Below are positions 4,632 to 19,904 of a DNA stretch of 64,000 nt, piece by piece. The stretch lies in IMG/VR virus record IMGVR_UViG_3300037572_000374, positions 1 through 64,000 of that record; one strand, given 5' to 3'. Origin of the DNA: a virus. How positions within the stretch are numbered: the stretch's first letter is position 1; each line of letters starts with the position of its first letter. Below the pieces are notes generated by a model. It saw nothing but the letters and a program-made list of their open reading frames with translations, made no database searches and was not told the origin of the DNA. Position numbers and translations under genes: made by a program.

Positions 4632-5900
4632 ATGGGAAGACCTAGAAAAGTAGAAGCGGCACCAATCGAATTAAATATCAATCCAACATTCAAACCATTA
4701 TTTATGGATGAAATGGATATGCCTAGATACTATCAATTATTTGGTGGAAGGGGATCTGGTAAATCGTTTGTAGCTGCTTTGGCTATGGTTCAATTAACCT
4801 ACAGTAAATATGAACACAAGATACTTTATCTAAGACAGACAATGGCATCTTCAGATGATTCGGTTGTAGCTGATATAAAAGCTGCAATAAGATTAATGAA
4901 TGCAGAAGCTGACTTCAGAGAAAGTAAAGGAACGATCACAAACATTACAACTGGAGCAACAATTTCTTTTAAGGGAATAAGATCAAGTGGATCAGCAACT
5001 GCAAAGTTGAAATCTTTATCTGGAATCACAACTCTAGTAGTTGAGGAAGCAGAGGAGGTAGAATCGTTTGAAGAATTCTCTAAGGTGGATGAATCAATTA
5101 GGATTGCAGGAAAGCCATTAAAGGTTATTCTTATTTACAATCCAACATCTGCATTACAATCTTGGATCCACAAAGAATGGTTCATAGATGGAAGACCGAT
5201 GGAAGGAAGGAGTGATACAATTTACATGCACTCAACTTATTTAGATAACGTTACCAATCTGAATCCATCTGTAGTAAAAAGATATCAAGATCTTCAGGAA
5301 AGTAATCCAACTTACTATCTTAATACAATTATGGCTGAGTGGACTTTAGAGACTGCTGGTAGAATGTATGCTGGATGGGGAATGTATCCTGAGCTAGAAC
5401 AAGAAGGAGATACTTGGTATGGATTAGATTTTGGTTATGGTGGTAAAGATAGAACCTCAATGATTAAGATTACTTGGATTGATGAAGTGTACTATGTTGA
5501 ACAAATGTTCAGTGAGTCCAAACTTTCAATTAGAAGAACTCTTACTAAGATGAGAGAATGTCAGATACCATTCAATGCAAAGATATATGCCGATAGTGCT
5601 ATGCCATTACTTATTGATGAGATAAGAAGAGGTGGTTACAGAACAGTAAGAAAAGCTACTAAAGGAAATGTTGAAGCAGGGATTAAGAAGATTCAGAATA
5701 AGGACATAGTATTAATAGGAGATCAGTCAACACATTTGTTTCATGCTTACATGACATTTGCTAGAGACAAGAATGGAAAACTTCCTCACGAGCCAGATGA
5801 ATTGGCTGCAATGAGATATGGAATTAATTCTAAGACTCCAACTAAGAATCCTGGAAAGAATAGACCAGTAAGAGCAAGAAGAAGAAAAGGCTTCTTATAA
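4632..5900 (+). CDS. terL: Terminase large subunit, PBSX-like
   Basis: Walker A GGRGSGKS, Walker B LVVEEA, YNP coupling motif, nuclease motifs GLDFGY and YADSA. Confidence 0.93.
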   Translation: MGRPRKVEAAPIELNINPTFKPLFMDEMDMPRYYQLFGGRGSGKSFVAALAMVQLTYSKYEHKILYLRQTMASSDDSVVADIKAAIRLMNAEADFRESKGTITNITTGATISFKGIRSSGSATAKLKSLSGITTLVVEEAEEVESFEEFSKVDESIRIAGKPLKVILIYNPTSALQSWIHKEWFIDGRPMEGRSDTIYMHSTYLDNVTNLNPSVVKRYQDLQESNPTYYLNTIMAEWTLETAGRMYAGWGMYPELEQEGDTWYGLDFGYGGKDRTSMIKITWIDEVYYVEQMFSESKLSIRRTLTKMRECQIPFNAKIYADSAMPLLIDEIRRGGYRTVRKATKGNVEAGIKKIQNKDIVLIGDQSTHLFHAYMTFARDKNGKLPHEPDELAAMRYGINSKTPTKNPGKNRPVRARRRKGFL

Positions 5901-6278: not shown

Positions 6279-6311
6279 GTTGCCTCGTATGTTTGAAAAA
6301 GAGTATCTTTA
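6279..6311 (+). promoter_or_regulatory. Host-RNAP (Bacteroidota sigma-A type) early promoter, GTTGC-N19/20-TATCTTT(A/G); representative of about 27 copies
   Basis: + copies at 6279, 6720, 9995, 10079, 10627, 10979, 11288, 11420, 11559, 11719, 12442, 12591, 13051, 41904, 43843, 46371, 49392, 53607, 62062 and a partial one at 63287; - copies at 10738, 11635, 12518, 14985, 17385, 19576, 19920, 20982, 21088; matches the TTG (-33) / TAnnTTTG (-7) consensus. Confidence 0.85.
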
Positions 6312-10146: not shown

Positions 10147-10599
10147 ATGAAAGAACAATTCAAAACCATACCAGGCTTCAGTCTGTATGAAGTAAGTGAC
10201 CAAGGAAGAGTGAAGAGCTTCCAACGATGTGGTAAGGAACCTTATAGGATCCTCAAACCTGGAACCAATAAAGGAGGTTACAAAGTAGTTATCATAAAGA
10301 ATGATGAAGGAAAGCTGAGAGGAATGAACATTCATGTACTAGTAGCTATCACCTTCCTCTCCCATGTACCTGAGAGGGGAGTAGTTGTTGTAGATCATAT
10401 TGATAATAATCCTTCTAATAATTTTTTGAATAACTTACAAATAATCTCATGTAGAGAGAATAGTAGTAAGGATCGAAAGAGCTTAGGGATCTATCATAAG
10501 AAGGATGTAGACAAGTATGTAGCTTCTTGGCAAGGTAAGTACATAGGTATCTACAATACAGAGGAGGAGGCTAGGAACGAACAGAGAAAATTTATTTAA
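10147..10599 (+). CDS. NUMOD4-HNH homing endonuclease
   Basis: IPGFSLYEVSDQGRVKS (NUMOD4), HVLVAITF, VDHIDNNPSNNFLNNL (HNH). Confidence 0.92.
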   Translation: MKEQFKTIPGFSLYEVSDQGRVKSFQRCGKEPYRILKPGTNKGGYKVVIIKNDEGKLRGMNIHVLVAITFLSHVPERGVVVVDHIDNNPSNNFLNNLQIISCRENSSKDRKSLGIYHKKDVDKYVASWQGKYIGIYNTEEEARNEQRKFI

Positions 10600-11451: not shown

Positions 11452-11527
11452 CCATGTGAATGGGACATATGAACTCAAAGACATCAGGAGCACAGAGCTA
11501 ATCAGAAATGGTTAGCTCTTTCCTTTT
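11452..11527 (+). ncRNA. Putative small RNA unit 2
   Basis: Paralogue of 11320-11388 with its own promoter at 11420. Confidence 0.45.
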
Positions 11528-11774
11528 GCAAAAACTTTTGAAAATAATTCATTTAACTGTTGCTAGTATGAAAACTATGGAGTATCTTTATCAGTACCAT
11601 TCGACCCCATTTGATTTGACACCAAAGGGAGTGACAAAGATCCTCCTTATCTTTCTATCTGACAACAGCAAGCGCTTATTTATATTCATTCTGGATAACA
11701 AAAGTTTTTTAAATAATTGTTGCCTGGTAGTTGCTTATGGAGTATCTTTGTCATGTCAAACAGATATAGATATT

Positions 11775-12059
11775 ATGAAAAATCAAGCAAAAGTACAACA
11801 AGTAGAAAACGGATTAAGAGCATTAGGTTTAAACTTCCCAGTAGGAGTAGAGAAGATAGATCATGAAACAGTAATCTTCATTACACACACTCCTAAGAAA
11901 GGGAATGCATTTGGAGTAGATGTAGAGACTTTAGATAGATACTTCAGTGCAGATGTAATGTTAAACAAGTACCATGACATGATCAAGTACTGGAGGTTAA
12001 CTGAGGATGAGAGAATGGCTATACAAGGTCACCCAATGCAGTGGTGTTTAAATAACTAA
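11775..12059 (+). CDS. Early hypothetical protein (start reassigned to 11775)
   Basis: Promoter at 11719 and leader point to MKNQAK as the start. Confidence 0.75.
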   Translation: MKNQAKVQQVENGLRALGLNFPVGVEKIDHETVIFITHTPKKGNAFGVDVETLDRYFSADVMLNKYHDMIKYWRLTEDERMAIQGHPMQWCLNN

Positions 12060-12860: not shown

Positions 12861-13101
12861 GTATGGAAAGATATGATGTGGAATACAGAGATGTAGAAGG
12901 AGACAATTATGAACAGAGCTTTGATACAGAGAGAGAGGCTTGGGAGTTCATTAGAAGGCTTCAAAAGGAGGACTGCACAGTAGTTCAAACTTGGGTTTAT
13001 ATTGATGATGAATATAAGGGAGGATTTTATTAAAAATAATTTAGGTAGCTGTTGTGTAGTAAATATATAATGGCTATCTTTATATCAAAGAAATAAATAT
13101 T

Positions 13102-13251
13102 ATGACAGTAGAAACAACTTATTTTGTAAAGAACAAATCAACAAACGAACTTTTACTTTCAACTGGAATCAAATCTAGAGCAATACTAAATTGTGACACT
13201 AGAACTGAGTACATAGAGGAGAGAGTAACAACAATAAAAACCATATACTAA
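13102..13251 (+). CDS. 49-aa early protein ending in the first attC-like half-site
   Basis: MTVETTYFVK...TIKTIY, downstream of promoter 13051. Confidence 0.55.
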   Translation: MTVETTYFVKNKSTNELLLSTGIKSRAILNCDTRTEYIEERVTTIKTIY

Positions 13252-13272
13252 TACGTTATAAACTGAAAAATT

Positions 13273-13428
13273 ATGAATTGGATAACTAAAAAGTTGATGC
13301 AGTACCAACTTAAAAAAGCAAAGAAACAATTAACAAAGCAAGAATATTCATTTACAAAACGTGCCTTTGGTGATATGGTGAAAAGTTATGAAAGTGCAAT
13401 ACGCTTTCTTGAAGCAAATAGTAGATAA
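13273..13428 (+). CDS. 51-aa cassette-borne protein
   Basis: MNWITKKLMQ...LEANSR, between inverted core sites. Confidence 0.6.
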   Translation: MNWITKKLMQYQLKKAKKQLTKQEYSFTKRAFGDMVKSYESAIRFLEANSR

Positions 13429-13494
13429 TTTTATTGTTTATAACTTATATGGTTATGATTAGTTGAGATTTATTAAAACTTAAAATTAAATAAA

Positions 13495-13899
13495 ATGAAA
13501 AATTTAGAAAAACAAGCAATAGGAATAGTAGCACAACTCTTTGATTTAGCAGAAGTGCCAGTAGATAAGAGGCAACAAATAAATGATGTTGCTTATGACT
13601 ACGTAACTGAACAATTAATTATAACCGATGTTAGCAAATGTAACTGCGATGTCATAAATTTAAAAACGATGATTGATAAAGGACAAAAGATTAAAATTAA
13701 AGACAATGTAGTGGTCGAATTAATGAAATTAGGTTTTGAAAAAGGTTCGGCTGAAAGTATGAAAGTGTTTGAAAATACAGAACAGATTGCTCACGATATT
13801 TACGAAGATGAAGGCACTACATATGTAACTGTTGAAATGTGTTGTGAAATACCACTACAATGTTGTGAAGCGTTGGAAGAAAAAGAAGCTACATCTTAA
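13495..13899 (+). CDS. Hypothetical protein reading through an attC-like crossover (QLIITDVS)
   Basis: Starts in the hairpin loop; GTT at 13630 is an in-frame Val codon. Confidence 0.75.
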   Translation: MKNLEKQAIGIVAQLFDLAEVPVDKRQQINDVAYDYVTEQLIITDVSKCNCDVINLKTMIDKGQKIKIKDNVVVELMKLGFEKGSAESMKVFENTEQIAHDIYEDEGTTYVTVEMCCEIPLQCCEALEEKEATS

Positions 13900-14009
13900 A
13901 CATTGATTAAAAGAACGAAATCTAGCATAGTTTTTATACTGTGTTAGCTTTCGTTTTAATGTTTGCTAACGTATTTGTATAACCGCAGTTGCGATAAATT
14001 AAAAACAAA

Positions 14010-14276
14010 ATGAGTAAAGAAGCAGAAGAATTTTTTAGACAAAAGACAATAGAAAATGCTAAAAGACCAAGGATGAAGAAATTCCTTGCATTAGTAAACA
14101 GAGAAGCGGAAGGAAAGATTATGCAAGAATACGCTGACCAGCAATTCCGGCTATACGATGTTAGCCAACAACGTGAACTGTTATTAGCTTATCACAGATA
14201 TTTAACAAAAGAACTTAGTTTAGATTTAAACGAGTTGTGGGTAGATGAACATTTAAAAGCTAATAATTATTACTAA
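14010..14276 (+). CDS. Hypothetical protein reading through an attC-like crossover (QFRLYDVSQQRELL)
   Basis: Starts in the hairpin loop; GTT at 14160 is in frame; stop codon lies within TAAC. Confidence 0.75.
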   Translation: MSKEAEEFFRQKTIENAKRPRMKKFLALVNREAEGKIMQEYADQQFRLYDVSQQRELLLAYHRYLTKELSLDLNELWVDEHLKANNYY

Positions 14277-14525
14277 CCAATACATAAAGATAAATAACAT
14301 GAAGATAAAAATTACATTTGAACCTGGGATAGATTTCAAACCTATGGAAGGATGTGACAGTTGTATGACAATATATAATCCTGAGATACTAGACGATCCA
14401 AGTGTGAAAGAATACTTGAGGAGAACTAGTAAGAATAACGAATAAGTAATTTGTTTTTAATTTGTTTGATAGAGAGGTGGGACTTGTTATCCCACCTTTC
14501 GACATACACAAAAACTAATAAAGAT

Positions 14526-14987
14526 ATGACACTAAATGAGAAAAGAAAACTTTGGAGAGATGCTAACCCTGATAAGGTTAAAGCATCTAGAGATAAATGG
14601 AATCAATCTAACAAAGATAAGCTAGCAGGCTACAATAAGAAATGGAATGAGGATAATAAGGAAGCTAACAGAGCCATTAACTTAGAGAGACAGAGAGCCT
14701 ACAGAAAGACAAAGGTTGGTGTAGTTACTTGCATATATGGAGGTATGAAGGTTAGTAGTAAGAGAAGACAACACCCTGCACCAAACTTTTCTTCAAAAGA
14801 ATTGAGGGAGTGGATATTCTCTCAACCAAACTTTGAACAACTCTATACTGATTGGGTAGCTTCTGATTACAGCAGATGGATGAAACCTTCTTGTGACAGA
14901 ATAGACAGTTCTCTACCCTACACATTTGATAATCTTCAGCTAATGACTTGGAGAGAGAATGACAAAAAAGAGAAGTCTAACCTATAA
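14526..14987 (+). CDS. HNH-type endonuclease (start reassigned to 14526)
   Basis: C-terminal SCDRIDSSLPYTFDNLQLMTWREN His-Me finger variant; basic N-terminal repeats. Confidence 0.8.
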   Translation: MTLNEKRKLWRDANPDKVKASRDKWNQSNKDKLAGYNKKWNEDNKEANRAINLERQRAYRKTKVGVVTCIYGGMKVSSKRRQHPAPNFSSKELREWIFSQPNFEQLYTDWVASDYSRWMKPSCDRIDSSLPYTFDNLQLMTWRENDKKEKSNL

Positions 14988-15151
14988 AGATCACCTATTA
15001 CTTTCAACCATGCAACAGTTAATATCATAAAGTAATAGCATAATCACTAATGGACATAACCAAAAGTGAATAGAGATAGAGAGGACCTCTGAGGATTGAA
15101 CACAGGTAAATAAACAAGGAAAGGACCTTTGTTCAATCAAACATAGGTAAC

Positions 15152-15199
15152 AAAAAAAAAGACCCTAGAGATTAATTACTTCTCTAGAGTCTTAGTTTT
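15152..15199. terminator. Bidirectional terminator between the converging early units
   Basis: A-run, GACCCTAGAGA/TCTCTAGAGTC hairpin, T-rich tail. Confidence 0.7.
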
Positions 15200-15432
15200 A
15201 TTAAGTGAGGCTGTGCCTTAGGAGATCTCTTTTGAGATACAGAGCTGATACTCTTTCATCCTCCTCTCCTATCAGAGAGAGTTATTTTGTTACACAGTTA
15301 TGAGAAACTTCTTCTCGTCCTTTGCTCAAGTTCATTATCTTGTCCTATTATTATAGATGCTCTACTTTAAGCTAACCTCCGTCTGGAGACTTGGTAGTAA
15401 TGTTACCCCAAGACCTTCTATAAACAATTAAA

Positions 15433-15600
15433 TTAATCATTTCCGTTAGGGCAACACCAGCCGTTTACCTTTATAGTTTTACCATCACCATATTTTTCAA
15501 TTATCTTAATTGCTTTTTTCATAGCTTTACCGTCTAACGGCTTACCGTCTGTTTGTGTAGGACACCCACACCACCCACATCTAAATAAGTTTGCATTCAT
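15433..15600 (-). CDS. 55-aa Cys-rich cassette protein
   Basis: MNANLFRCGWCGCP...GWCCPNGND, translated by hand. Confidence 0.55.
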   Translation of the reverse strand: MNANLFRCGWCGCPTQTDGKPLDGKAMKKAIKIIEKYGDGKTIKVNGWCCPNGND

Positions 15601-15642
15601 AATTATTAATTTAAAAGTTCATATACAATTCGTTGTAGGCAA

Positions 15643-15891
15643 TTAAAGCCTTTCCATTATTTCCGAAAGCCTATCACTATTATGCGGTTGGCAGTTATCA
15701 TAAGCAAAGTCTTTTAAATCTTCTAAAGCTTTTAACTGTTCGCTTCGCCCCACAACATCGGTTAAAGTTAATTGCTCAGTTTTGTACTCGTTTAAATAAG
15801 CATCCATTGCTTTATGTATTTCATCCCATTGCATAGGCGTTAATCTACCTATCATTGGGTGTAATTTTAAAATGTCTTGTTTGTTTTTCAT
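15643..15891 (-). CDS. Hypothetical protein reading through an attC-like crossover (QLTLTDVVGRSEQL)
   Basis: ATG at 15891 lies in the loop; core GTT at 15756 is in frame. Confidence 0.7.
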   Translation of the reverse strand: MKNKQDILKLHPMIGRLTPMQWDEIHKAMDAYLNEYKTEQLTLTDVVGRSEQLKALEDLKDFAYDNCQPHNSDRLSEIMERL

Positions 15892-15956
15892 TTTATGTTT
15901 ATTTAATTCTGTTAATATCCCACGCAACTAACCATATACTAATACGTTATAAACAA

Positions 15957-16097
15957 TTAAAAATAACCGCTTTCGTGCAATCTAATATAAGCCTCGCAAT
16001 TTGCAAGGTTGCTTTGGTACGCAACACTATCATCATCTGCATTTAATACTTGGTAAGTATCGTTCATAAGTAATTGTACTCTAAAATTTCGTTCCAT
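15957..16097 (-). CDS. 46-aa cassette protein
   Basis: MERNFRVQLL...HESGYF, between core sites 15946 and 16125. Confidence 0.55.
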   Translation of the reverse strand: MERNFRVQLLMNDTYQVLNADDDSVAYQSNLANCEAYIRLHESGYF

Positions 16098-16188
16098 AAT
16101 TCATTTATTTTTAAAAGTTAATAACACCGCATATAATTCATTTGCAACTTGTCTGTGCGGTAAGGCAAACAAATCATATTCGTTTCCG

Positions 16189-16392
16189 TTATAAACAATT
16201 TAATACTAAACTTTTACCTTTCAATATAGCATAGTCTTGTATCTGTGTCATAAAAAGCACAACTCCACTATTATTAGGTCTGTGCTTACTGTACATTAAA
16301 AGCATACCAAAAGAATTATTGTATTGTTCAATAGTTTTACTGCTTTTTAAACACTTGTAAATTTTGTCTAATTTTTTAAATTCTGTTTTCAT
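16189..16392 (-). CDS. 67-aa cassette protein
   Basis: Stop codon lies within the inverse core site. Confidence 0.65.
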   Translation of the reverse strand: MKTEFKKLDKIYKCLKSSKTIEQYNNSFGMLLMYSKHRPNNSGVVLFMTQIQDYAILKGKSLVLNCL

Positions 16393-16509
16393 ATTTCCGT
16401 ATTAAAAAGTTAATAACAACGTATAAAATTAATACGCTATGATGGTCAGTACTTTAATTTAAACTTCTGTAATAGGCGTACTAACCTTATACCTATCAGT
16501 TGGTGATAA

Positions 16510-16734
16510 TTAGGGCTTATCTCCTAAAAAAGAAAGTCCTTCAAACAACTCTACATATTTGCCAAATACGTTCTTAACTCCAAGTATATTAAATATAATA
16601 AGGCTTATAAGCATAGGTACATATAGCAAGGCTACTACAAACAAAACCCTAACTATAACCAACACCCTATATAAAATATTAAATAGTATTGTTTCTTTAA
16701 AAGGCTTGTCGTTTACTTTTAATTGTATTTTCAT
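16510..16734 (-). CDS. Membrane protein reading through an attC-like crossover
   Basis: Starts in the loop of site 16655-16793; hydrophobic C-terminal half. Confidence 0.6.
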   Translation of the reverse strand: MKIQLKVNDKPFKETILFNILYRVLVIVRVLFVVALLYVPMLISLIIFNILGVKNVFGKYVELFEGLSFLGDKP

Positions 16735-16785
16735 TTTTATAAAATTTAAGTTATTATTAATTTAACATTCCATATATGCGAAACG

Positions 16786-16929
16786 TTATATGCAATTAAA
16801 CATTCGTTGTATATCTTCGTTTGGTACATCTTTCCAAAACATCTGTCTAAACATACAATAGTATTTATTTGTTTTCTCTTGTTTTTCTGTTGGCGTTAAG
16901 TTATTCCACCATATATTAAAGTTCTTCAT
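16786..16929 (-). CDS. 47-aa cassette protein
   Basis: MKNFNIWWNN...MFNCI; flanked by perfect 9-bp inverted cores GTTATATGC/GCATATAAC. Confidence 0.6.
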   Translation of the reverse strand: MKNFNIWWNNLTPTEKQEKTNKYYCMFRQMFWKDVPNEDIQRMFNCI

Positions 16930-17434
16930 CTCTCAAAGTATTAAAAGCATATAACAAAGGCTAAAATTAATAGCCTAAATACGCTTAGTTTTTTAATTGA
17001 TTAGTTCATTACTTAGGCTACTAATCTTAGCCAAACCGTTAGGCAGAACATTAAAACGATTTGCCAACAATGTATATAAACAATTTCTCAAATGATTGGA
17101 TCCTCTTTCAACCCATTTCACTCTTTTATTTAACTACATCCCTTAGGGATGTAAGCAATTGTCCTTAATGTATTGAAGTTTGTTAGTGGGATTGCAATGC
17201 CATCTTTGAATAGCTAGCCTATTATTTAACGTGACTTACACACGGTAGTATTACTATAGCTTGACAAGCCTATTAACATGTTACTTCAAAATTTTCAATG
17301 AACTTATGTCTTGGTAGGCTAGTGAGAGACTTGCTCTGCTTCTTCGAGAACCTTTCCTAAAAAGGCTGCCTTCTTTCGACATGATAAAGATACTCTTATT
17401 TAAACATACGGGGCAACAAAAAGTTTAATTATTT

Positions 17435-17680
17435 TTAATTATTTTTTTGAGGCAAAGTTAAAATTAACACTACCACCTTTACTAGTGTGGCTCCCATGAT
17501 TGAAAAAGCTATATGTTTATTTGGCATATCTGCAAACTCTTTAAAGCCATACACAAGCATGCCATCCATTACTAACATAAGTATTAAAGGTAACATTGCA
17601 AATTCTTGAGGTAGTAATCTACCTATTCTCTGAGATACTAATGCTATCAAAAGCATCCCTACTATTAGTCCTATTATCAT
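17435..17680 (-). CDS. Small 3-TM membrane protein
   Basis: Three hydrophobic segments. Confidence 0.7.
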   Translation of the reverse strand: MIIGLIVGMLLIALVSQRIGRLLPQEFAMLPLILMLVMDGMLVYGFKEFADMPNKHIAFSIMGATLVKVVVLILTLPQKNN

Positions 17681-18351
17681 TTTTTTATTGCTATTGCGAT
17701 TTGTGCAGCCATAATCCTGGCTCCTTGGTCATTATTGTGTACATGATCGTGATAGTTGTTTAAATTGATGCTACCATCTGCATTTAACATTGGGGTTCTT
17801 AAATCAATGATTTCAAACCCTGGTGTGCTGTCAAACATTTGACTTATGATCTCAGTCCTTGCTATGTGATTGCCATCACCATTGTCTGTTCTTGGTATCT
17901 CAGCACAATAGAATACTTTGGATCCTTGAGCTAGCTTCTGTGTTATGATAAAAGATATTGTGTCAACTGATGTTTGTAAATCTCTATCATTCGTTCCAAA
18001 CATGATAACATAAATGTCAGCCAAAGGAATATCATCATACCTATCCATCAAGTTCTGAGAATTGGATCCACCTACAGCATCATGACCAAAGTTGTATTGG
18101 TCTGTTAATGATCCCACAAAGACAAATCTATTCTTTGCCTTGTGGTTGATATAATATCTCAGCTTTGAACTTCCGTGGCTGATGAATCTGCTATCTCCAA
18201 TTGTCGATACAGTTTGAACTGGAGGGGGTGTTGGAATTATCTCAACCTCGTCAAACATTTTTTGTTCAGAATATAATTCTAACTGCTCATTGTCTTGACA
18301 ACTTGTAAACAATACAAGTGCTACTAAAAAATTTCTTATACTACTTATCAT
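17677..18351 (-). CDS. SGNH/GDSL hydrolase lipoprotein
   Basis: Lipobox LFTS-C; blocks IGDSR, FGTND and DHVH. Confidence 0.85.
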   Translation of the reverse strand: MISSIRNFLVALVLFTSCQDNEQLELYSEQKMFDEVEIIPTPPPVQTVSTIGDSRFISHGSSKLRYYINHKAKNRFVFVGSLTDQYNFGHDAVGGSNSQNLMDRYDDIPLADIYVIMFGTNDRDLQTSVDTISFIITQKLAQGSKVFYCAEIPRTDNGDGNHIARTEIISQMFDSTPGFEIIDLRTPMLNADGSINLNNYHDHVHNNDQGARIMAAQIAIAIKK

Positions 18352-19904
18352 AATAATTGATTTGGTTTTTATGTTGTTTTGCAATTGGAGTATTAAAGAG
18401 TGGTCCCACATTAACAATATTGTTATCCATTACATAATCAAATGCAGCTGGGCACCCCTCTATCTCCCAAACACGTCCAGTGCTGTCTTCAGTTACTACA
18501 AATATGTTTACATCATACTGCTCTTGCATTATATCATACTCTATGTAGTAATCGTTACCTTCTATTTTAAATTCGTGCACAGCTCCTCTTAGCAAAGCAT
18601 CTACCGATATTACTCCTTCACGCATTGTCATTTTTTTATATTTTTTAAAATTTGTGTAATTGATAATGGCATTACATCTTCCATTGTTGGATTCTCATCC
18701 CATTCTACTATTGCATCCGCCGGGTATCCTTTCAGGATTCTTTCACACTCCTTGTCTTGGACAAAGTCTGTTACTGACGTATTGATAAGGTGTCTCTTAC
18801 CGTTTATGACTAGTACCTCCATTAGATTATTGCTTTTAAGATTTTAATAGCTACCATTTGTTCTTCCTTAGTCATAGACATAAACTTTTCATTGAACTGT
18901 TCGTTGTCTACTAAGAACTGTGCTATCTTTTTATTCTGTTGTTTAGTTATAAATTTTTTCATAATTAATATTTTAAATTTGTTCCAAATGTTTTGTTGAA
19001 GTCTTCACATCCTATCTGAATAGGTCTCTCCTCAACAATGTACTCTCCTTTTCTAAGAATCGTTTCATACCCATCGAACCAATCGTTAAGCTCCTTTTGC
19101 CATTGTGCCTTTTGCTGCTCAGTACTGAGACATGCTCTTACTTGTGTCAATTGTAATTGACTTAAAATTAAATCCATTTATCTTTTGTATTTTGTGTTAT
19201 GATCTCTCCTTGGGTACTATAAAAAGTTTCTACAATTTGATTACCAGCATCTACAAATGCATACATTACATTTCCGCACGTACCATATAATGTTAAATCT
19301 TTTGTGTGTCCTAATATATTTTTCATATCTATAAATTGAATACTTCAGCAACTGTTAAGGCAACTACCCCTAGTACAATTATCTGCACTATGAAGATTAC
19401 TGTTTGTTTGGTTTCAGCTTTCATTATGCTCTTGGTATAACTTGTTTGTTAGCAAAATGGTCTATCTTTAAACCATTGCTTAGTGTAACTGTGTACAAAG
19501 GTTTTGTACTTGTAATCTTCTTGTAATTAAAAATGTAATTTAATAATGCCCTCATAATATTTATTTTAATTTTGGTAAAGATACTCTATCTAGAAACATC
19601 TAGCAACTTTTATTTGATTTATTTTTAAAACTTATTTGAAAGGCTTCTAAGCGATCCAAATAAGTTTTTGATATATCTTATCGTTTAGCAAACATTAAAG
19701 CTCTATAAACAAGTCATATGGAGTCTGAGCAAAGTACATTGGCATCAGTCCTTTAAGGTCTATAACAAATCCATATCTCATGTTGATAAGAAAATCATTG
19801 TTAGTTAATTCTTCAACTAGGGCTTCTCCACAAGTTGGGTACTTTATTGCATATGCATTTAGTGCTTCAAGTACTTGAGGTTTCAATTTTTGTAATAAGT
19901 TCAT
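18341..19904 (-). other. Cluster of short early ORFs (18341-18631, 18628-18822, 18965-19177, 19695-19904 and several under 60 aa)
   Basis: Driven by minus-strand promoters at 19576 and 19920. Confidence 0.65.

Follow-up and report, generated by a model that had tools for sequence, protein, structure and literature searches.

Probable integron-like cassette arrays in the small-gene region of a Cbastvirus-like marine phage

The window analyzed here is the first 64 kb (64,000 nucleotides) of the 78.5-kb IMG/VR record IMGVR_UViG_3300037572_000374, a phage genome from marine metagenomes that is judged to be 98% complete and that we regard as Cbastvirus-like because its terminase and portal region resembles that of Cellulophaga phage phiST and its kin (69% DNA identity). 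Between 13.1 and 17.1 kb the window carries small open reading frames (ORFs) in two convergent blocks, one on the + strand reaching 14987 and one on the - strand running from 16929 down to 15433, with terminator-like hairpins between them. When read on the gene-sense strand, the same hairpin module is present at every gene boundary in this region. We consider it probable that the blocks are two convergent arrays holding some ten cassettes, each a mini-gene, with folded recombination sites between them that belong to an integron-like system specific to the Flavobacteriaceae.

In the mechanism that we propose, each site is an imperfect hairpin formed by one DNA strand, with an invariant AAC/GTT pair at its base and two conserved G·T pairs that let only this strand fold well. 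A host cassette would move as a unit bounded by successive AAC cores. The phage array is an integrase-less cluster, similar to the clusters of attC sites lacking integrases (CALINs), and would need an enzyme from the host because the phage itself encodes no recombinase; presumably the host enzyme, working on phage DNA in single-stranded form, would have captured these cassettes and could reshuffle them. Co-infecting phages may also exchange them by homologous recombination at similar sites. The site family links the orphan early genes of lytic marine phages to long cassette arrays of their hosts and to a recombinase present in 51 of 61 sampled Flavobacteriaceae genomes, and it seems that phage and host have a common system of gene capture, overlooked by standard surveys for integrons. 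Integrons are regarded as rare or absent in the Flavobacteriaceae and as marginal in phages. A full-text literature search found no description of this system, which is no proof that none exists.

Architecture and folding of the sites

Seven full sites and two partial ones share a single layout on one strand, the gene-sense strand: an invariant AAC, a spacer of 5-6 nt, covarying arms whose loop measures from 11 to about 170 nt, a spacer of 2-3 nt and an invariant GTT. The initial annotation had listed seven sites with an AAC-arm-loop-arm-GTT arrangement, and all of them exist and have this one architecture. The 5′ part of the module comprises a box, (ATTG)yyTAyAAC, the longer spacer, which usually begins with GG, and a 5′ arm beginning GTRTAWGRTTAGT; the 3′ part follows the loop with an arm ending AyTAAyTwTAYAC, the shorter spacer and GTTrTA.

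Three of the sites have short loops. Site 1 (16953-17040, - strand) reads GCCTAAC, a GGTTT spacer, 23-bp arms around a 28-nt loop, a TTT spacer and GTTATATGC, and lies upstream of a 47-aa ORF. Site 3 (16415-16501, -) is upstream of a 67-aa ORF and consists of CACCAAC, a TGATAG spacer, the arm GTATAAGGTTAGTACGC with its partner, a GTT spacer and GTTATTAAC. Site 4 (16123-16190, -), upstream of a 46-aa ORF, has TTTATAAC, a GGAAAC spacer, 17-bp arms, a GGT spacer and again GTTATTAAC, and its TAAC contains the stop codon of the ORF upstream.

A more elaborate arrangement is seen in the four long-loop sites, in which the loop holds the start codon of the next gene together with its first 16 to about 50 codons, and the 3′ arm and GTT are coding. 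Thus the loop of site 2 (16661-16787, -) contains the ATG (16734) and first ~16 codons of a 74-aa ORF, that of site 5 (15755-15948, -) the ATG (15891) and 45 codons of an 82-aa ORF, that of site 6 (13442-13632, +) the ATG (13495) and 46 codons of a 134-aa ORF, and that of site 7 (13968-14162, +) the ATG (14010) and ~50 codons of an 88-aa ORF. The 3′ arm and GTT of site 5 encode ..EQLTLTDVV, and over 46 nt this sequence shares 93.5% identity with a segment of the otherwise unrelated Cellulophaga phage phi19:3; both this likeness and the recurrent peptide ..EQL.L.DV.. arise because the 3′ arm and GTT are coding in long-loop sites. The three sites of ~200 nt had been taken for merely paralogous N-terminal coding domains, an interpretation that was revised since the conserved peptide corresponds to the 3′ arm and GTT of a long-loop site. 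We also note that three unrelated phages share the coding sequence GTTGTRGGGCGAAGCGAACAG (VVGRSEQ) behind the GTT of site 5, with conservation extending to synonymous positions (window 15731-15776; locus L001, 6001-6046; locus L002, about 5625-5650). The GCGAAGC contained in it is a very stable DNA mini-hairpin.

Partial copies mark further boundaries. At 15610-15647 (-), upstream of a 55-aa ORF, there is a box, ATTGCCTACAAC, and the start of a 5′ arm, for which no convincing 3′ arm was found. An inverted partial copy at 13239-13262 (-) likewise has a box and the start of a 5′ arm, identical at 24/24 nt to the start of site 5; this copy and site 6 bracket a 51-aa ORF with inverted boxes. A degenerate box, AATTGTTTATA.., lies at the upstream edge of the - array (17064-17085, -), and a matching copy at its downstream edge (15408-15429).

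The cassette ORFs of the - array are at 16786-16929 (47 aa), 16510-16734 (74 aa), 16189-16392 (67 aa), 15957-16097 (46 aa), 15643-15891 (82 aa) and 15433-15600 (55 aa, cysteine-rich), and those of the + array at 13273-13428 (51 aa), 13495-13899 (134 aa), 14010-14276 (88 aa) and 14299-14445 (48 aa). All are on the folding strand, and none has a Pfam or PHROG family. Stop codons had been said to fall often in the TAAC core, which is confirmed in part, for only three of nine ORFs; the others terminate 8-15 nt upstream of it.

The ends of the cassettes are complementary. The 6 nt following GTT pair with the 6 nt preceding the next AAC at six of the seven window junctions (6/6, 5/6, 5/6, 5/6, 5/6 with one wobble, and 6/6), and at the last in 3/6 positions only. 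The pairs concerned are GTTATATGC/GCATATAAC, GTTGGTTAT/ATCACCAAC, GTTATTAAC/GTTTATAAC (twice), GTTGTGGGG/GCCTACAAC and GTTAGCAAA/TTTGCTAAC, in the last of which the box of site 7 is the exact complement of the sequence at the end of site 6. The inverted 9-mers that had been described at cassette ends are thus real.

Arm complementarity within sites, also proposed at the outset, is evident throughout. A scan gives 23/25 pairs for site 1, 18/19 for site 3, 17/19 for site 4, 18/20 for site 2, 16/17 for site 6 and 16/18 for site 7; counting by hand gives 13/16 for site 5. With at least 16 arm pairs required, there are 6-7 sites in these 3.8 kb and about seven, on the two strands together, in the other 75 kb of the genome. 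The RNA folds of the three short-loop sites are more stable than shuffled controls (z of -4.9 for site 1, -3.2 for site 3 and -2.05 for site 4), whereas the whole fold of long-loop site 2, taken as 16655-16793, is not significantly so (z -1.45). When the three short-loop sites are folded as single-stranded DNA, the gene-sense strand is in each case the more stable (-12.1 vs -9.8, -8.8 vs -5.7 and -9.3 vs -6.9 kcal/mol for the gene-sense and the other strand).

Covariation was assessed in an alignment of 49 distinct family members fitted to a covariance model, R1, built from 17 copies with the three short window sites in its seed; an independent MAFFT alignment (A1) agrees with it. The arms of these members are 97% paired, with compensatory changes in 13 of 17 arm pairs, and AAC and GTT are invariant in 49/49. 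None of 500 shuffles reached the observed covariation score, and controls in which the partner was slid along gave 0.05-0.09 compared with the 0.50 observed. Two G·U (in DNA, G·T) pairs are retained in 46/49 and 47/49 copies, with one replacement by G-C, and both are present in all three short window sites. There are no conserved bulges or extrahelical bases in the arm helix, and strand asymmetry stems from the two G·T pairs instead. The inner parts of the arms are conserved in sequence (GTRTAWGRTTAGT and AyTAAyTwTAYAC). Two alternative pairings are also real: a spacer helix around the 5′ arm, in which 5/6 pairs covary, and a pairing of the 5′ arm with a segment in mid-loop. An attenuator or riboswitch-like switch constructed from these pairings was considered and dropped, as chromosomal genes run antisense to the folding strand.

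The family in other phages and in Flavobacteriaceae chromosomes

The family extends well beyond this phage. An exact 17-mer from site 3 matches 19 IMG/VR contigs, 18 of which contain the whole element of ~115 nt upstream of unrelated ORFs; Tenacibaculum phage Gundel_1 is one of the carriers. R1 scores sites 3, 1 and 4 of the window at 112.9, 87.6 and 73.2 bits on the - strand and at no more than 23 bits on the + strand, and its independent members at 38-68 bits; the long-loop sites of the window were assigned by our own arm scan. R1 finds second and third copies on the same contigs, in the same orientation and 0.3-1.1 kb apart, and also two sites in each of four Baltivirus phages, five in Polaribacter phage P12002L, and seven within a single 5.5-kb contig. 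Site-bearing lytic marine phages belong to at least three lineages (Cbastvirus-like, Pachyviridae and Incheonvirus).

Comparison of the Baltivirus genomes shows that their arrays differ by whole blocks ending at AAC. A 371-nt block (99% identical) has changed place and has AAC at both ends, and in all four genomes the variable part joins the conserved part at AAC|AATGTTATATAAC. The variable array of these phages (L001, L024, L025 and L026) is closed by a minimal site without arms, yTAAC-AAT-GTTATATAAC, and a conserved 78-aa gene and a tyrosine integrase of generic phage type follow immediately downstream. The arrangement is reminiscent of attI beside intI, but the integrase is unrelated to the chromosomal enzyme described below (24% identity, E 0.05), and this Baltivirus recombinase was accordingly rejected as a candidate for the enzyme of the family. 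Neither sites nor homologues of the small genes are present in the syntenic region of phiST (Cbastvirus), which is uninformative on gain and loss.

Five metagenome contigs contain copies of site 6 (89-94% identity), with homology that begins at the AAC core and stops exactly after GTT, where the copies have three other in-frame continuations; one contig has the C-terminal portion of the 134-aa protein and lacks its N-terminal module. The 134-aa protein itself (13495-13899; loci L090-L095) is modular, in that residues 1-47, which correspond to the loop of site 6, recur with other C-termini, and residues 54-132 recur without the N-terminal module. At L090 a Met codon at the equivalent of residue 59 could, by eye, start a separate gene.

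In bacterial genomes, a degenerate pattern of the site matches about 35 Flavobacteriaceae assemblies, in which R1 finds clustered copies, so that scanning with a covariance model, as the initial annotation had suggested, places the family in both phages and chromosomes. The chromosomal sites span ~120-125 nt from core to core, compared with 68-88 nt for the short and 127-195 nt for the long-loop sites of the window. The relationship between structure and coding strand differs between the two settings. In the phage arrays the longest ORF between sites is on the folding strand, whereas in the chromosomal arrays it is opposite to that strand in 34 of 41 intervals, and in both the conserved core and the two G·T pairs stay on the strand of the model. 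The fold is therefore a DNA-level feature, since the structure keeps its strand while the genes flip.

The exact limits of the chromosomal cassettes are seen in the genome G017, in which three units of ~970 nt are 100% identical and each starts with ..CAACGG and ends with ..ACAACG. These ends define the cassette as a site plus a gene, reaching from one AAC core to the next. The triplicated cassette (locus L081, 11000-16400) encodes a 264-aa ORF matching the cation diffusion facilitator family below its cut-off (75 vs 82 bits). Complementarity of the ends also recurs: among 62 consecutive site pairs, counted by us from the junction table, the 6 nt after GTT are a perfect complement of the box of the next site in 24, compared with perfect pairing with the box of their own site in seven and a chance expectation of ~0.2. 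Such complementarity between the GTT flank and the next box is the integron hallmark of a once-circular unit that was opened within its site.

A recombinase gene adjoins these arrays. In G017, a 405-aa XerA/IntI-like tyrosine recombinase is encoded directly upstream of an array of at least 30 kb. It scores 212.6 bits against NF040815 (XerA/integron integrase, cut-off 220) and 196.5 bits, in two stretches, against TIGR02249 (integron integrase, cut-off 265), with lower scores for XerC and XerD; it aligns contiguously with archaeal XerA (5hxy) and in two stretches with the solved IntI4 (2a3v), which fits a Xer-like enzyme lacking the integron-specific insertion. The enzyme has an additional N-terminus of ~110 aa. 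Homologues, mostly single-copy and full-length, are present in 51 of 61 sampled Flavobacteriaceae genomes, and many contigs break off 130-210 nt past this gene, as would be expected if a repeat array followed. R1 was run on the regions flanking 20 homologues and on 11 controls from the same contigs (133 kb). Of the recombinase flanks, 16 extend at least 1.4 kb downstream, and 14 of these contain matches, 56 in total; the 11 controls contain none. All 56 are downstream of the recombinase and on the strand opposite to its gene, and the recombinase is co-directional with, not divergent from, the cassette ORFs. An IntI/Xer-like recombinase, for which the initial annotation had suggested a search in hosts, is thus found at the head of the arrays.

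Weighing the integron-like reading and its alternatives

A probable interpretation of these relationships is the one made initially, of integron-like capture by a tyrosine recombinase of the host or of some distant source, which is the natural reading given that the phage has no recombinase; the host arrays, the duplications and the complementary ends agree with it. In detail it requires correction: the sites are not canonical attC sites, the phage ORFs are on the folding strand, and four of the sites have a gene start in their loop. We infer that the recombinase cuts at the AAC core and acts on this phage, and that recombination occurs in the phage itself. If the enzyme does act on the sites, this would explain how such phages gain and swap small accessory genes, would define a path by which genes pass between marine hosts and their virulent phages, and would mean that a simpler Xer-type enzyme and another mark of the active strand went along with the evolution or divergence of integron-like capture.

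The similarities to integrons and CALINs, including those of virulent phages, are extensive: promoter-less arrays in one orientation, small single genes and sites that fold as single strands (PMC9892861, PMC4889954, PMC9024848), AAC/GTT cores at the base of an imperfect hairpin with a loop of variable length, one strand that folds better, a cassette start complementary to the box at its own end, stop codons overlapping TAAC, and a host array that adjoins a tyrosine recombinase alongside a phage without an integrase. There are also clear differences. The recombinase is XerA-like and below the IntI cut-off, is ~110 aa longer at its N-terminus, and is co-directional with the host cassette ORFs; the inner arms are conserved in sequence, and two G·T pairs rather than extrahelical bases mark the strand; and the loops may hold a gene start, the phage ORFs are on the folding strand, and a sibling site is not recombined by IntI1. 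The attC consensus RYYYAAC/GTTRRRY is matched in part, by GCCTAAC and not by TTATAAC or CACCAAC; the attC length criterion is 57-141 nt.

The VCRs (Vibrio cholerae repeats) of the Vibrio cholerae superintegron are bona fide attC sites of an IntI (IntIA). They resemble the present family in having sites that are alike with unrelated cassettes between them, very long chromosomal arrays, and homology that ends sharply at the ends of the sites; host clade, site sequence and recombinase all differ.

Several observations weigh against an integron-like origin of the phage arrays. There is no tyrosine or serine recombinase (PF00589, PF00239) anywhere in the 98%-complete phage genome, which extends the absence of an integrase first remarked on in the window, and 13 of the 15 other element-bearing phage records lack one too. 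The phage ORFs are inverted relative to the chromosomal cassettes. The DNA hairpins are only modestly stable (z -1.5 to -2.1). In copies of site 3, conservation continues past GTT up to the ATG of unrelated genes, a pattern more in line with a regulatory leader or with homologous exchange than with crossover at AAC alone; site 6 and others like it are flanked by unrelated DNA on either side. Finally, P12002L_attC1, whose published primer exactly matches an R1 match (L080:30005-30059), stood alone among six phage sites in not being recombined when IntI1 was assayed with attI1, and its prediction came from HattCI only, as the attC model of Infernal did not find it (Qi et al. 2023; PMC9892861). 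A separate system with its own enzyme would account for the failure of this one phage "attC" in the IntI1 assay.

A broader version of the integron-like reading is possible, although we hold it to be doubtful. It supposes that the host recombinase exchanges cassettes between phage and chromosomal arrays during infection, such that both draw on one shared pool, and that the loops containing start codons serve as a device for shuffling proteins in frame. A crossover at or within such a site would fuse the loop-encoded N-terminal module of 16-46 residues in frame to a new C-terminal part, and site 6 already displays four different continuations.

The alternative that fares best is that the sites are regulatory linkers of the kind described in T4-type phages as PeSLs (promoter early stem-loop elements; PMC2839356, PMC4122927), with intergenic stem-loops acting on the early transcript as terminators, processing signals or stabilizers, joined to a conserved translation leader, and with genes shuffled by homologous recombination and no site-specific enzyme. 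We initially favored an RNA element of this kind, as the folding strand in the phage is the mRNA strand, and gave it up after the chromosomal strand result; we now think it unlikely. In both systems small orphan genes of the plastic early regions of lytic phages have conserved stem-loop modules on their flanks, the modules delimit the insertions, deletions and swaps that distinguish relatives, and the phages have no dedicated recombinase. The phage hairpin is always mRNA-sense and 20-30 nt upstream of an ATG, its G·U pairs are valid in RNA, its RNA folds have z values of -2 to -4.9, most copies have a T-run after the base helix, and site 3 copies share their leader as noted above. However, the chromosomal folding strand carries the same G·T marks and is antisense to the ORFs in most intervals, invariance of AAC and GTT is not required by a simple RNA helix, and the cassette ends are complementary even though the arms of neighboring sites are unrelated. 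Moreover, the arrays adjoin a tyrosine recombinase, and exact duplications end at AAC. PeSLs also hold a sigma-70 promoter and a terminator, whereas no match to the promoter family of this phage is present within its sites, and unlike PeSLs these sites have invariant cores and strand-specific folding and occur in recombinase-headed host arrays. A role of the hairpins in mRNA is possible in the phages but would be secondary, and homologous exchange of the PeSL kind between similar sites probably adds to any site-specific exchange.

It is still less likely that the sites are selfish miniature palindromic elements resembling miniature inverted-repeat transposable elements (MITEs), enterobacterial repetitive intergenic consensus (ERIC) sequences or Correia elements, spread by an unidentified transposase, with the intervening genes not being cargo. 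They do occur in many copies, as imperfect palindromes 80-200 nt long; unrelated phages have the same element (85-95% identical) between unrelated genes, and truncated and half copies exist. But there is one orientation per array with a copy at nearly every gene boundary, the gene is part of the unit that is duplicated or moved, and bases outside the site pair with the box of the next site and not with their own. No target-site duplications were seen, and beside the arrays that we looked at there was no transposase noticed but a tyrosine recombinase.

That the array is an ordinary integron fragment with canonical attC sites recognized by a true IntI is very improbable, for although the layout matches (R″-like ..yAAC, spacer, arms, variable loop, arms, spacer and R′-like GTTr..), stops lie in TAAC and HattCI called the sibling P12002L_attC1 an attC (PMC9892861), that site was missed by the Infernal model and failed with IntI1 and attI1 (PMC9892861), the recombinase is below the TIGR02249 cut-off and contiguous with XerA but split with IntI4, conserved G·T pairs take the place of extrahelical bases, and the only complete Bacteroidetes integron that IntegronFinder 2.0 reports, beyond earlier In0 elements (cassette-less integrases), is that of Salinibacter ruber (PMC9024848).

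Promoters, composition and neighboring genes

Each array is headed by a single phage promoter, as the initial annotation had it, with none inside. That of the + array is at 13052-13082 (TTG-N20-TATCTTTA) and that of the - array at 17385-17416 (-; TTGC-N20-GTATCTTTA), the latter being followed by a non-coding leader of ~290 nt. The motif GTTGC-N18-GTATCTTTA has ~28 copies in the genome, and in a whole-genome motif count it was absent from the interior of the sites and arrays. Within the sites there was also no convincing match to promoters of the Bacteroidetes type (TTG-N19-TAnnTTTG), the sigma-54 type or the extracytoplasmic function (ECF) type.

The promoter family can be written (A/T)ATGTTGC-N18/19-(G)AGTATCTTTA; its ~28 copies are intergenic and always oriented with the genes, and it conforms to the TTG / TAnnTTTG type of the Bacteroidetes, to which it adds an extension specific to the phage. 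Examples are at 6280, 6721, 9996, 10628, 10980, 12592, 13052, 17416(-), 19606(-), 19950(-), 21013(-), 41906, 46371 and 62064. Between 9330 and 12650 there are about ten promoters within 3 kb, four of them (11289, 11421, 11560 and 11720) ~130-160 nt apart and each preceding G+C-richer DNA without a credible ORF; a 183-aa ORF annotated at 11508-12059 seems spurious. These closely spaced units could be short non-coding RNAs or decoy units.

The array region is distinct in composition. Its observed/expected CpG ratio is 0.71, the highest among all 3.8-kb windows, and reaches 1.12 in the - block (15433-17085), compared with 0.32 genome-wide; the CpG richness previously noted by eye is thus confirmed, and the cassette region is foreign in composition. 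The rest of the genome is strongly CpG-depleted (0.13 near 50 kb), which suggests that resident genes avoid a CG-containing target of restriction or methylation. The non-coding segments at 15000-15430 and 17100-17385 (290-430 nt), the second of which is the leader directly behind the promoter of the - array, are of unusual composition and have no Rfam match; nothing in the window reaches the Rfam gathering threshold, and no tRNAs were found in it.

Terminator-like hairpins are present between the convergent arrays at 15159-15193, with an A-run and a T-run (z -3.0), and on the + strand at 13912-13957 (z -6.5) and 14472-14500 (z -3.8). At the end of the + array, a 153-aa ORF (14526-14987, +) matches PHROG 1035, "endonuclease VII" (E 6e-9), and has no Pfam match. 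The name is that of the junction- and cruciform-cutting enzyme of T4, and its position here beside palindromic sites may be a coincidence. The proteins of 244 and 252 aa that flank the arrays have no relatives among viral contigs; the former (17677-18411, -), which adjoins the array promoter, is a GDSL-like lipase/acylhydrolase with a Pfam score just below the cut-off. Further upstream, at 10147-10599 (+), there is a free-standing homing endonuclease gene with NUMOD4 and HNH_3 domains and non-coding DNA on either side.

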